Under the pieces are notes generated by a model. The model was not told the origin of the DNA, made no database searches, and saw nothing but the letters and a program-made list of their open reading frames with translations. This document shows positions 6,011-47,950 of a DNA stretch of 64,000 bases, in pieces; positions within the stretch are counted from its first letter, which is position 1, and each line of letters starts with the position of its first letter. Source of the stretch: Squalus acanthias (lineage: Eukaryota); NCBI GenBank assembly GCA_030390025.1, contig CM059431.1, positions 131,628,001-131,692,000 on the forward strand, written 5' to 3'. The position numbers and the translations under genes were made by a program.

Positions 6011-6447
6011 GAAATTAGGGCTGCTGCTTTTCTCTCCCGTGTCTCCATAATATATTTCTGTGAGGATTTTTACATAACAGATGGTGTGGTGGAGCACAAA
6101 TGTGCTGTGTCAGAGTGGTTAGATCTCTTTGCTGACTTGAGTTTCTATTCACAGCTCTGGTGCTGGCGGGAGGGAGATGCAGAAAAGAGGCCAATTCTGC
6201 CCTTCTCCCACTGTGGAGGGCGAGTCATTCCCAAGTTGCACTTGGCTAAGAGGACAGTGAGCATCTTATTCAACTACCCTTTCAGTTATCGGACCTGGAA
6301 AGATTTTAGGCATTGGGCAAAAAAAAGATTTTATATTTACAAGTAAATAAATCAATCAAGCACAAAATATGAACATACAACAACTGCTATAGTATTATGT
6401 GAGAAGTCGCACAACACCAGGTTATAATCCAACAGCTTTATTTGAAA

Positions 6448-6484
6448 TCACAAGCTTTCGGAGCGCTACTCCTTCATCAGGTGA
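6448..6484 (-). ncRNA. Minimal hammerhead ribozyme, inverted pLTR copy
   Basis: Reverse complement reads TCACCTGATGAAGGAGTAGCGCTCCGAAAGCTTGTGA (one G-U pair in stem II). Confidence 0.85.
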
Positions 6485-6509
6485 AGTGAAGGGATGCATA
6501 TAGGCACAG

Positions 6510-7593
6510 GATCTCCAACCAACGCTATACACCAGATACATTGACGACATTTTCTTCCTATGGACCCACGGCGAAGAATCACTGAAAAGACTACACACCA
6601 TCAAACTCACCATGGACTACTCCTCAGAATCGGTTTCATTCTTGGACACACGAATCTCCATCAAAGACGGACACCTCAGCACTTCACTCTACCGCAAGCA
6701 CACGGACAACCTCACGATGCTCCACTTCTCGAGCTTCCACCCTAACCACATTAAAGAAGCCATCCCCTATGGACAGGCCCTGCGAATACACAGGATCTGC
6801 TCAGACGAGGAGGAACGCGATGGACACCTACAGATGCTGAAAGACGCCCTCGTAAGAACGGGATATGACACTCGACTCGTGGATCGACAGTTCCGACGGG
6901 CCACAGCGAAACATCGCATAGACCTCCTCAGAAGACAAACACGGGACACTACCAACAGAGTACCCTACGTCGTCCAGTACTTCCCCGGAGCGGAGAAACT
7001 ACGCCATGTTCTTCGCAGCCTTCAACATGTCATCGATGACGACGAACACCTCGCTAAGGCCATCCCCACGCCTCCACTACTCGCCTTCAAACAGCCGCCT
7101 ACCCTCAAACAGACCATCGTTCGCAGCAAATTACCCAGCTTTCAGGAGAACAGCGACCATGACACCACACAACCCTGCCACGGCAACCTCTGCAAGACAT
7201 GCCAGATCATCAACAGAGATACCATCATCACACGTGAGGACACCACCCACCAGGTACATGGTACATACTCATGTGACTCTGCCAACGTTGTCTACCTCAT
7301 ACGTTGCAGGAAAGGATGCCCGGAGCATGGTACATCGGCGAGACCATGCATACACTGCGACAACGTATGAACGGACACCGCGCAAGAATCGCCAGGCAGG
7401 AATTTTCCTCCCAGTCGGGGAACACTTCAGCAGTAAAGGACATTCAGCCTCCGATCTTCGGGTAAGCGTTCTCCAAGGCGGCCTTCAAGACACACGACAA
7501 CGCAAAATCGTCAAGCAGAAACTGATAGCCAAGTTCTGCACCCATGAGGACGGCCTCAACCAGGATCTTGGGTTCATGTCACGCTACATGTAA
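6510..7593 (+). pseudogene. PLE RT-thumb/GIY-YIG endonuclease ORF remnant (frameshifted)
   Basis: RYIDDIFFLW upstream of ORF 6612..7370 (SVSFLDTRISIK, LYRKHTD, AIPYGQALRIHRICS); the C-terminus PVGEHFS...DGLNQDLGFMSRYM is in a second frame. Confidence 0.9.
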
Positions 7594-7893
7594 CCCCACC
7601 TGACGTAGAGTCATCCAGACTCGAGTCGTCATTGGCTTGCTGTGATTTCCAGAAAAAAAAAATTGTTTTCCATACAGACCCCAGCATCTGCCACATTTGA
7701 CCCCTTGTGACCCCACCTCATTGTCTTTGATGTAATGTTTTCCTGACTGACCTGTTTGGACACCATCCACACCTTTGATTGCCGTGATTATCTCTCTGCC
7801 GAGGTGTGATAAAGGGCAGTTAGAAAGATTAACTGTAATCATCTGGCAGTGTTCTCTGACTATATATGCTGTGCCTATATGCATCTCTTCACT

Positions 7894-7930
7894 TCACCTG
7901 ATGAAGGAGCAGCGCTCCGAAAGCTTGTGA
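7894..7930 (+). ncRNA. Minimal type I hammerhead ribozyme in PLE pLTR
   Basis: TCAC-CTGATGA-A-GGAGC(AGC)GCTCC-GAAA-GCTT-GTGA: stem I TCAC/GTGA, core CUGAUGA/GAAA, stem II GGAGC/GCTCC, palindromic AAGCTT stem III. Predicted cleavage after CUU (7926/7927). Confidence 0.9.
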
Positions 7931-8726
7931 TTTCAAATAAAGCTGTTGGACTATAACCTGGTGTTGTGCGACTTCTCACATTTGTCCACCCCAGTCCAAC
8001 ACCAGCATCTCCACATCATGGCTATAGTATTACATAGCAATGATGTTTTTGATATTTTCATTTTTTCCATTAAAAAAAAAATCACAATTTATCCCATATG
8101 CCTCTGGTTACAAGGCAGGATGGCACGAGTTCAGGGCTCTGCAATAGGGAGGAGGGCAGATTATAATATCAGTCCACTCAAATTAATATATTAGGGGAGA
8201 AATCCCCATTTTGGATGGAAAAAATTCAGCACCTTTAATGATCAAAAGCATTTCAAAATCCAATTTTAGTAGGGAAGTGTTTTTACTGTGAATATTTCAA
8301 ATGGGATAATTGTATTGATTAAGCTGACCAGTTTTAAAATATCTGGTTTTAGTAATCTTTAAAATGTGTATGTAAAGGATTTGCCTTAAGTTGACAAGAT
8401 CATGCATTACTAGGATAGTGGAAAAAACTTTTCCACAAAATTCAATAATGATAATGTTTAAGTTACAGATATCATATAACCAATGTTATTCTCACGTTGT
8501 AACATTTCACTTTTGGTAAAAATTAAAATAGGAGAGCCAAACATTTGAGCAACAGATGTGTTGTGGTTTGGTCTACAGTGGTGTTAAAATGGATGGAAAA
8601 TGGCAGATATCCTAGAATTGCAGTGTTAGATCTTATATGAAAACATTATGTTTTGAGAGGGTCTGCTTACTGTGCCAATAGAGGGTGTGACATTCAGAGG
8701 CTCCAGAAAATGCAGTGCAAGTCTAT

Positions 8727-45953: not shown

Positions 45954-46567
45954 ATAGAATCATAACGGCACAGAAGGAGGCCATTTGGCCCATCGAGTCC
46001 ATGCCGGCTCTCTGTAAAGCAATCCAGTCAGTCCCATTCCCCTGCTCTATCCCTGTAGCCCTGCAAGTTTATTTCCCTCAAATGCCTATCCAGTCTCCCC
46101 TTGAAAACATTGAGTGTGTCCGTTTCCACTACTTCCGTCGGCAGCGAGTTCCAGGTCCTCACTGCTCGATACGTCAAAAAGTTTTTCCTCACGTCCCCCC
46201 TGTATCTCTTGCCCAAAACCTTAAATCTGTGTCCTCTAGTCATTATACCATCAACTAGTGGGAACAGTCTTTCCCCGTCTAGCCTATCCAAACCCGTCAT
46301 AATCTTGTACATCTCTATCAAATCACCCCACAACCTCCTTTGCTCTAATGAAAACAAATCCAGCTTCTCCAACCTGTCCTTGTAGCTAAGATCCCCCATC
46401 CCCGGAACCATTCTGGTAAATCTCCTCTGCACCCTCTCAAGTGCCTTCACATCCTTCCTAAAGTGTGGTGACCAGAACTGGACGCAATACTCCACTTGTG
46501 GCCTAACCAGCGCTTTATAAAGGTTCAGCATAAATTCTCTACTTTTGTACTCAATACCTCTATGAAG

Positions 46568-46800
46568 GCCATGATGCGGAGATGCCGGTGTTGGACTGGG
46601 GTGGACAAAAGTGAGAAGTCGCACAACACCAGGTTATAGTCCAACGGTTTTATTTGAAATCACGCTCGGGGGTCGCGTAACTATTTAGAATTCCGATAAC
46701 GAACGAGACTCCTCCATGCTAAATAGTTACGCGACCCCCGAGCGTGATTTCAAATAAAACTGTTGGACTATAACCTGGTGTTGTGCGACTTCTCACTTTT
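46568..46800 (-). mobile_element. Chimeric 18S rRNA/PLE mini-insertion with inverted-repeat structure
   Basis: 46568-46663 is the reverse complement of PLE 7927-8022; 46744-46800 is the inverted arm; TSD ACCTCTATGAAG at 46556-46567 and 46801-46812. Confidence 0.93.
46689..46744 (+). pseudogene. 18S rRNA fragment (partial inverted copy at 46664-46688)
   Basis: AATTCCGATAACGAACGAGACTCCTCCATGCTAAATAGTTACGCGACCCCCGAGCG matches the recalled vertebrate 18S 3'-major-domain sequence TTAATTCCGATAACGAACGAGACT...GTTACGCGACCCCCGAGCGG. Confidence 0.93.
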
Positions 46801-47079
46801 ACCTCTATGAAGCCCAAGATCCCATATGCTTTGCTAACCACTCTCTCAATATGTCCTGCCACCTTCAGGGACCTATGCACATTAACTCCCAGGTCCCTCT
46901 GCCCCTGCACACTCTTTAAAACTGTGCCATTAAGTGTTTATTGCCTCTCCCTGTTCCTTCTGCCAAAATGCATCACCTCACACTTCTCTGTATTAAATTC
47001 CATCTGCCACTTTTCTGCCCATTCTGCTAGCCTTTCTATGTCCTGTTGCAGTCGATTGGTATCATCAACAGGTGTAAAA

Positions 47080-47950
47080 CAGGAAGATTATTTTAGTAGG
47101 TGACTTCAATAAACCAAATATAAATTGGGAATGCCCAGATGGTTCAGAATATGAGTTGGTAAGCATAATGCAGGACTACTTCATGCACTCATATCAGAAG
47201 TCATGAGAGGCTGTGCTCATGGTAAGAATACATGACCCAAATAATATAGCAAAGATTGAAGTGTTGTTCCCTTTAGTGGACAGCGATGATAGAATAATCA
47301 ATTTCAACATGACCCGGGAAATACTTGAAATGCCGAGGATTGGGTGCCAGGCATATAATTTTGAAAAGGAAATAAGTGAACAGTTTAAGTAAATTGACTG
47401 GGGGAGGGGAGCAAGTTGTTAAACAAAACATCAGTAGAGGACAATTAGAGCACACATTTAGAGACACAATGCTGAGCGGCAGGATAAGTACGTACAGGGA
47501 TTAGCAAGTGGAAGCTAAACAAACATTACTCTAAATGGATTAATGAATTAATCAGAAGCAAAATAAAGAGGAAACACCACCTCTATGAATTCTGCACGAA
47601 GAAAGGTGATGGGATTCACTGGGATAAATATAGGAACATGCAGATACATTTAAAAGGGCAAAGAGGGACCTGAAAAACAGCAGAGGTGCAGGTGCAAAGC
47701 ATAATAGTAAGAAATTCCTTTAATATATAACCGTGAGAACGCAAAGATGATAATGGAGCCAAAATTGAGGTTGAGCATAAAACAGGTAATATATTAAATG
47801 ATTGCTTCCTCTAAGCATTCATGAAGGAAGAAATGAGCAACATGCTCTCATGAATTCGTGACAATCCAAATAGAATAAATGAGATGAAAGTCACACACAG
47901 GCTAAAAGGAAATACAAATAAATTCCCCAGGATGTTTAGTGTTTTTCACA
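47080..47950 (+). mobile_element. Very old CR1 endonuclease-region relic
   Basis: ILVGDFNKPNINW at ~47090, SDD/DRII and NSKKF-like remnants. Confidence 0.55.

Follow-up and report, generated by a model that had tools for sequence, protein, structure and literature searches.

How does a piece of 18S ribosomal RNA (rRNA) come to be joined to a retroelement at the very base where the ribozyme of that element is predicted to cut? This question is raised by a small insert in a 64,000-nucleotide stretch of Squalus acanthias DNA (assembly GCA_030390025.1, contig CM059431.1, positions 131,628,001 to 131,692,000), which we call the window. The insert combines 18S rRNA with 3'-terminal sequence from a Penelope-like element (PLE), a reference copy of which lies elsewhere in the window (Table 1). 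We conclude, with a probability of roughly 0.7, that the insert is a genuine mini-insertion made by the PLE's own machinery from a chimeric template. To judge from the copies compared below, the same 18S/PLE fusion has probably formed repeatedly, in several PLE subfamilies.

By reading the sequence and scanning the window for motifs and repeats, we delimited an insertion of 232 bp (46568-46799) flanked by 12-bp target-site duplications (TSDs). On the plus strand it consists of antisense PLE nucleotides (nt) +1 to +96, with the GCCATGATG... end at the TSD, followed by antisense 18S, sense 18S, and sense PLE nt +1 to +56. The first base of each arm is the one that follows the predicted hammerhead cut, and both arms are joined there to 18S as ...CCCCGAGC/GTGATTTC. 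The repeat search reported the insert as inverted arms of 85 nt that are 98% complementary, plus a direct repeat, and the GTGATTTCAAATAAA motif of the arms gave four matches in the window against 0.32 expected. The first 30 nt of the sense 18S piece (46689..46743) form the unique center of the inverted repeat. The outer ends of the two arms differ by 40 nt, and the insert has the form of an inverted 5'-truncated copy with a tail on one side only. Where paralogues of the host repeat have an empty site, their sequence is ...CTCTAT-T-TATGAAG... (joint from 46563 to 46806). Both TSD copies carry the same private difference from the paralogue form, which fits a true duplication. These observations bear out two claims of the original prediction: that the insert is built like the PLE at 6398-8022 and that its two arms share one junction but carry 18S pieces of different lengths, 25 and 55 nt.

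This layout is an ordinary one for the family. Parts of the report by Craig et al. (PMC8557442) describe PLE insertions as an inverted 5'-truncated copy with a 30- to 40-bp tail at one end. According to the in vitro work of Frangieh et al. (PMC11167929), both DNA strands are cut and then extended by a PLE enzyme, a predicted dimer, which has two adjacent internal start sites for its reverse transcriptase (RT); what lies between these two start sites forms the tail. We scored 29 of 30 loci picked only for a perfect 96-nt module (L021 was left out). An adjacent inverted arm with its outer end at +50 to +61 was present in 24 of the 29 young tail-bearing copies; one copy (L012) was cut by the locus end, and four had no such arm. 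Such a pair of arms, one with the tail and one lacking it, is what PLEs ordinarily show as the mark of two RT start sites, which in this family would lie at about +56 and about +96. The GTGATTTCAAATAAA arm motif has 68,629 matches in the 3.7-Gb assembly. Most young PLE insertions (L001 to L030) are about 200 bp long, and the start of their sense arms lies between -13 and -46, inside the hammerhead or a little way 5' of it, as though synthesis of PLE complementary DNA (cDNA) were often stopped by the folded ribozyme region.

The upstream part of the insert had been called 18S, and it matches ribosomal DNA (rDNA) without a difference. The 55 nt in the window correspond to positions 39 to 93 of a 93-nt 18S query taken from another chimeric locus, L034, at 100% identity, and this query in turn agrees at 100% with seven members of the multi-copy arrays found on C38 and C1087 (both contigs). 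The Rfam model SSU_rRNA_eukarya matched L034 with 57.8 bits and a further chimeric copy, L098, with 61.4 bits (threshold, 50), and it matched an 18S pseudogene that covers the site (L102) with 461.5 bits. The 55-nt piece alone gave no Rfam match. In the L102 alignment, the junction falls in a long variable hairpin of the Rfam model. The last 18S base, a C, is predicted to be the 3' end of the 7-nt apical loop CCCGAGC in four of four fold windows of true rDNA (L107).

We then place the PLE side of the junction. The reference copy was read by hand against the descriptor of minimal hammerhead ribozymes (min-HHR), as given in part of PMC4209133, and agreed with it in CUGAUGA, the extra A between positions 9 and 10.1, G10.1-C11.1, GAA, the palindromic 15.2-16.2 (GC), U16.1, and U17. 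The core comprises CTGATGA (C3 to A9) at 7898-7904 and GAA (G12 to A14) at 7919-7921, with helix II formed by GGAGC/GCTCC. A15.1, G15.2, C16.2, U16.1, and U17 lie at 7922-7926, G1.1 lies at 7927, and helix I pairs GTGA with TCAC (7894-7897). By canonical numbering, this reading predicts the cut between 7926 and 7927. The PLE part of the insert thus begins at the predicted cleavage base, as had been proposed. The cleavage triplet is not constant: PLE subfamilies (L080 to L097) vary at helix III and the triplet, reading GAAAGCTT/G, GAAAGCGC/G, or GAAAGATC/G. The subfamily with the GCGC form has no U at 16.1 and may be inactive or pair otherwise.

The exact CCCCGAGC/GTGATTTC junction was found at five loci with differing TSDs and 18S lengths: the window (25 and 55 nt; TSD ACCTCTATGAAG), L031 (23 nt; TSD AATAATCTGGA), L034 (93 and 18 nt), L035 (8 and 5 nt; TSD GATTGGGCAGAA), and L037 (19 nt, with two mismatches in the 18S part). 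The sixth copy, L098, is older; its junction is degenerate, and its 18S begins, like that of L034, at CATGG. At the five loci, all eight junction-bearing arms are without extra bases, and at three of the five both arms carry the junction. Two further matches, G000:C6:117351425 and G000:C5:154882961, were observed beside these. One reads ...ATCATGGC/GTGATTTC and has the appearance of head-to-tail 96-nt modules; the other has ...GGGGGTCGCG..., which resembles antisense 18S, directly ahead of G1.1; it may represent one more 18S chimera, the seventh, in degenerate form.

Does this recurrence reflect repeated fusion or the spread of one ancestor? An ancient 18S-PLE fusion could have become a nonautonomous family resembling short interspersed nuclear elements, its 18S lengths being 5' truncations. 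Such a founder would explain why the junction is identical at five loci, and the longest copies, L034 and L098, start their 18S within 1 to 2 nt of the same CATGG, as if from a 93+96-nt master. However, four tail signature classes can be told apart among the chimeric arms (A16/CTTCTCACTTTTG, G16/CTTCTCACTTTTG, A16/CTTCTCATTTTTG, and A16/CCTCTCAATTTTG), each of which also occurs in ordinary PLE copies, three of them directly after a hammerhead. In the two-armed loci scored, the two arms match each other as far out as the tail-less one reaches, and the diagnostic changes of the copies do not follow a single lineage. The 18S parts of the chimeras share no change relative to rDNA. Four tail classes together with no common 18S change lead us to prefer three or more independent fusions to a single founder family. 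Furthermore, there are only about six copies and no evident promoter, and the same 18S end on other elements, together with a near-identical segment at L099 (both described below), speaks for a recurrent RNA end rather than inheritance. We therefore consider a single founder unlikely.

If RNAs that end at the predicted cut serve as templates, breakpoints should accumulate there throughout the genome. As a proxy for breakpoints, we counted 15-mers preceded by two nonconsensus bases genome-wide, with reversed patterns as controls. The cleavage base (offset 0) gave 473 matches (control, 3), whereas offsets -4, -1, +4, and +8 gave 107 (control, 1), 172 (control, 6), 203 (control, 32), and 178 (control, 8), respectively. 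Junctions thus pile up at the cleavage nucleotide, at 2.3- to 4.4-fold the level of the four flanking offsets, in proxies that have unequal denominators and of which the -4 pattern covers only GCTT-type subfamilies. About 0.7% of the arm motifs (473/68,629) break at this base. We have fair confidence that, as these genomic junctions suggest, RNA ends at the predicted cut served as templates in vivo, rarely.

The same counts bear on whether the window junction could be a chance 5' truncation at the cleavage base or an assembly error. The 5' truncation points of the PLE family are highly variable, and among short repeat contigs from four sequencing runs (the best runs covering at most 0.49 of sampled words) none crosses the insert or the 18S/PLE junction. 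Against this, the exact junction is common to five loci with differing TSDs, a break at that base is seen in only about 0.7% of arm motifs, and the insert has canonical architecture and a TSD. Chance or artifact is therefore exceedingly improbable.

What lies across the break was classified for 30 of the 473 offset-0 loci, all on contig C1, so that the shares below come from small and partly biased samples. Joins to inverted PLE sequence make up 19 of the 30. Three are solo arms that start from the exact G1.1 beside target DNA (L038, L049, and L060; a TSD was read at L038 and L049), and the solo arm of L095 likewise starts at G1.1 beside target DNA. Three loci are complex (L050 and L056/57), and one is the 18S chimera L035. 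At L045 (about G000:C1:54903214), a 250-nt sense piece of the PLE's own N-terminal open reading frame (ORF) region lies between two arms, one inverted and tail-less and one tail-bearing, both of which end at G1.1, with the TSD ATTATTTGGGTG. L044 has AAA inserted exactly at the cleavage site; the pattern GAAAGCTT-NNN-GTGATTTC had this single match genome-wide, and three-base inserts at the cut are thus not common. The remaining two loci are a point-mutated hammerhead and a non-PLE sequence.

The 18S end also recurs away from the PLE. Sequence stopping at ...CCCCGAGC had 18 genome matches, of which 10 run on into further rDNA, 5 lie in chimeric PLE arms, and 3 are new loci. At L105, the 18S end runs into the last ~80 nt of the family of long interspersed nuclear elements (LINEs) to which the host repeat of the insert belongs (54/63 identical). 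At L106, it runs into a 3' region of the same family, about 150 nt from the end (76/96 identical). The third, L104, continues into GTGAATAGGAC...; we rejected its partner as a second ribozyme-bearing family because GTGAATAGGAC is unique in the genome. The joins at the 18S end have no consistent microhomology. The simplest cause common to all of them would be 18S with its 3' end lying free in the loop.

A fixed 18S junction could instead come from PLE and LINE copies inserted in 18S genes, whose cotranscripts were retrocopied elsewhere. Such a source would also yield abundant chimeric RNA, and poorly assembled rDNA arrays could hide it. However, none of the 10 rDNA-type matches that cover the site has an insertion, two unrelated endonucleases would have to strike one base, and the PLE targets are unlike the 18S site, with TCTAT(TT)ATGAAG used three times. 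We regard an rDNA source as very unlikely.

Other 18S fragments were also observed. At L099 (G000:C15:50629552-50630039), an 88-nt near-identical 18S segment, (GGTG)CATGG...GACCCC, interrupts an ORF resembling an integrase of a long terminal repeat (LTR) retrotransposon (...IDYIGPLP...SGNKYCLVVVDNFSKW...). L100 and L101 are scrambled 18S pseudogene pieces; in L100, the 18S halts at CTAAAG and resumes in a region farther upstream in 18S.

Several points weigh against ribozyme cutting and repeated fusion as the origin of these junctions. The excess at offset 0 is only of the size given above and comes partly from helix I microhomology: about 8 of the 30 classified junctions, which belong to the 19 joins with inverted PLE sequence, are snap-backs at GTGA/TCAC, and because GTGA is shared with the helix I complement, these are cases of microhomology and no evidence of cleavage. 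None of the 29 young tail-bearing arms starts at +1, so cleaved templates can be only a small minority. Rfam reported no match at all in the window at the gathering threshold and no hammerhead in E-value mode on 6380-8040, where, as on 46540-46830, it gave only weak microRNA-like hairpin matches; a minimal hammerhead and a 55-nt 18S piece are both below the detection of the Rfam models. The anole PLE did not need ribozyme cleavage in vitro, and RNA sequencing gave no reads that ended at the site (PMC11167929). The discrete 18S fragment is a putative RNA, and the case for independent origins draws on four tail signatures in five to six loci, where recombination between a founder chimera and PLE RNA is possible.

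With these points in mind, the following route would account for the insert. The minimal (dimeric-type) hammerhead would cut PLE RNA and free the 96-nt 3' module, which starts with GUGAUUUC and holds both RT-start regions. A discrete 18S fragment would end, on its 3' side, with the final base of the apical loop in the variable-region hairpin (...CCCCGAGC-3'). We hold both of these steps with fair confidence. The 18S and PLE RNA ends would then be joined head to tail. From the anatomy of the insert and published biochemistry, the PLE enzyme would next prime cDNA on both target strands, at about +96 and about +56. Each cDNA would cross the junction, and the shorter one (25 nt of 18S) would jump to the longer one (55 nt) at the latter's 3' end, giving the inverted repeat. 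The 30 nt at the center and the tail-less arm are collinear, and the other arm extends to +96, which indicates that two separately primed cDNAs crossed the junction. L034 is the mirror case.

A template jump by the RT from the cleaved 5' end, followed by fold-back copying, had been named earlier as an alternative. Its two halves fared differently. A single-cDNA fold-back is rejected: the 30 unique nt are continuous with the tail-less arm, and +57 to +96 could not be copied from a cDNA begun at +56. With the longer 18S on the tail-less arm, a simple fold-back cannot produce the insert; two RT start sites with priming on both strands account for the arms better. The jump is what we prefer, by a narrow margin, for the joining step. 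An end-to-end RT template jump at the cleaved 5' end has, in our estimate, even odds; it fits the jump-prone integration of PLEs and the second arms of L031 and L037, which stop at +1/+2 without 18S. On the other side stand the eight arms without extra bases and the three loci with the junction in both arms, which would be simpler to obtain from one preformed RNA.

The alternative is ligation by RtcB, the tRNA ligase of the host, in which the 5'-OH product of the hammerhead and a loop-cut 18S fragment with a 2',3'-cyclic phosphate would be joined and then copied by the PLE enzyme. The window geometry needs a junction that was reverse transcribed twice, and the exact junction at all five loci is as ligation would leave it. 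The 18S break follows a pyrimidine in a predicted loop, like a cut of the RNase A/T2 type, and L105 and L106, with a fixed small-RNA 3' end and variable LINE positions, have the pattern of U6/LINE-1 chimeras. For the latter, RtcB ligation before retrotransposition has been reported (PMC6789731, in the part drawn on here), and excerpts of PMC7229834 describe hammerhead-cut retrozyme RNAs as efficiently circularized by RtcB in vitro, which favors ligation here as well. However, PLE integration is visibly jump-prone, most copies being inverted or switched. The L031 and L037 arms that stop at +1/+2 without 18S imply a part for unfused cleaved RNA, or else for a jump, as well, and the short contigs from the sequencing runs do not bridge the junction. 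Ligation is thus a serious possibility at somewhat less than even odds; jump and RtcB-type ligation are not separable from DNA alone.

Whichever way the ends are joined, the original prediction went further and proposed that PLEs capture arbitrary RNAs. This was not borne out. 18S is the only recurrent foreign partner that we found at the cleavage base, at five to six loci against 68,629 arm motifs; in one further case, L045, the captured piece is the PLE ORF fragment. An N-padded pattern for other foreign partners at G1.1 (C/G-C/G class) gave 98 matches against 82 for the reversed control and was too noisy. With about six events and 18S as the sole recurrent foreign partner, there is no dedicated capture system; the 18S/PLE fusion is a rare recurrent by-product.

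The remaining features concern the host repeat and the reference copy (Table 1). We support the identification of the host repeat as a decayed LINE on the minus strand, whose 3' end with a ...GACTCGATGGGCCAAATGGCCTCC motif lies at 45976-45999. The narrower label of CR1, under which the insertion had been described at 233 bp, is a candidate only: the insert and its TSD are real, and the host gives a weak RVT_1 match on the minus strand. ORFs of the insert flanks had no match in Pfam other than this subthreshold RVT_1 in the host, and the ESM Atlas gave leads only. The position TCTAT(TT)ATGAAG was struck by three independent PLE mini-insertions (the window, L011, and L017) in separate copies of one LINE family and in both orientations, and the L034 insertion lies about 60 nt from that position in the same family. 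This repeated targeting of TCTAT(TT)ATGAAG suggests a target preference of the PLE endonuclease.

At least 20 other copies share the tail of the reference PLE at 100% identity; thus, the family is young. The ORF of the reference PLE is frameshifted, and a local Pfam search gave nothing significant. It carries what we take to be a YIDD motif, from an RT remnant, and a VVYLIRC...YIGET-like motif. Most of the 82 protein relatives with E values of at most 1e-10 have RVT_1 together with PF28514 and PF26215, and 11 also have the GIY-YIG domain PF01541. The closest are shark proteins with 81 to 91% identity.

Table 1. Coordinates in the window of the 18S/PLE insert, its host repeat, and the reference PLE.
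Feature	Position	Strand	Remarks
Reference PLE copy	6398-8022		About 1.6 kb; 5'-truncated; endonuclease region frameshifted; own TSD TATAGTATT
Inverted tail-less arm, 5' side of reference PLE	6398..6511	-	Outer end at about +55
Minimal type I hammerhead motif of reference PLE (predicted)	7894..7930	+	Read by hand against the min-HHR descriptor
Postcleavage 96-nt 3' module of reference PLE	7927..8022	+	Contains both putative RT-start regions (about +56 and about +96)
Left TSD ACCTCTATGAAG	46556..46567		T at 46555 (= T at 46800) common to both sides
Tail-bearing PLE arm, reverse complement of nt +1..+96 (GTGATTTC...CATCATGGC)	46568..46663	-	CATCATGGC end adjoins the TSD
Antisense 18S rRNA, 25 nt	46664..46688	-	Continuous with the tail-bearing arm; junction ...CCCCGAGC/GTGATTTC
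Sense 18S rRNA, 55 nt	46689..46743	+	100% identical to rDNA; continuous with the tail-less arm
Tail-less PLE arm, nt +1..+56	46744..46799	+	Ends at the second RT-start region
Right TSD ACCTCTATGAAG	46801..46812
Host LINE reverse transcriptase remnant, interrupted by the insert	46938..47087	-	RVT_1, E value 5.8e-4, 20.1 bits, below the 29.6 cutoff

What would these junctions mean for the ribozyme itself? The function of the PLE hammerhead is called "still unclear" in a passage of PMC8557442. Tentatively, and with some doubt, we suggest from the junctions that in vivo it may act as the releaser of a 96-nt 5'-OH "RT-recognition tag." RtcB would join this tag to RNA fragments with a cyclic phosphate, mostly the loop-cut piece of 18S, and successive subfamilies would have written the ligated host RNA into the genome. 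If this is true, the PLE ribozyme, for which an explanation has long been missing, would gain a definite consequence at the molecular level, and RtcB chimeras would reach past LINE-1. In either case, the genome appears to record, at base resolution, RNAs ending exactly at the predicted cut that were used as templates, and the recurrent fusion at the cleavage base would be rare genomic evidence for ribozyme cutting in vivo. Both the cutting in vivo and the existence of a discrete 18S loop-end fragment, with its end chemistry, are now directly testable in Squalus acanthias.

How does the insert compare with systems already described? Chimeras of rRNA, tRNA, and small nuclear RNA (snRNA) with LINE-1 are already known, as is the arm architecture of PLEs. 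A limited literature search found no PLE-rRNA chimeras and no chimera of a PLE with host RNA fixed at a ribozyme cut. Relative to a canonical PLE insertion, the insert has the same inverted tail-bearing and tail-less arms, the same difference of about 40 nt between outer ends, and a TSD, but foreign RNA replaces the inner parts of its arms from the exact hammerhead cut onward. Metazoan retrozymes, as described in excerpts of PMC7229834, are similar in that hammerhead-cut RNAs with 5'-OH ends and with ends that carry a 2',3'-cyclic phosphate are joined by RtcB and are thought to be copied by the RTs of autonomous elements. However, those are tandem units cut at both ends and circularized, whereas the insert holds only the 3' product, joined to host RNA. 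We also considered the insert as a retrozyme and rejected this, as it lacks a CUGAUGA...GAAA core and consists of one inverted repeat.

The closest parallels are with LINE-1. Parts of a preprint (PMC11838501) report chimeras of 28S rRNA, 5S rRNA, and tRNA halves, as well as snRNAs, with LINE-1, with recurrent loop ends and with twin priming for inverted forms. These resemble the insert in placing rRNA or tRNA fragments with recurrent loop ends on retroelement 3' parts; they differ in that the element is the mammalian LINE-1, that 18S does not occur in those parts of the preprint, and that their junctions are not defined by a ribozyme. In U6 snRNA/LINE-1 chimeras (PMC6789731, as far as the part used here goes), a sense cellular RNA with a fixed 3' end is likewise fused to a retroelement 3' part in one TSD-flanked unit, and the same debate between ligation and template switching applies. 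The window insert has this form as well: the defined 3' end of a cellular RNA is fused in sense to a retroelement 3' part within one TSD pair. Three things set it apart from U6/LINE-1: the mobilizer is a PLE, with a GIY-YIG endonuclease and a telomerase-like RT, and not LINE-1; the partner is an internal 18S fragment and not a whole snRNA; and the retroelement side is also fixed, at the ribozyme cleavage base. The class of chimeras between host RNA and retroelements is thus widened from LINE-1 to PLEs.

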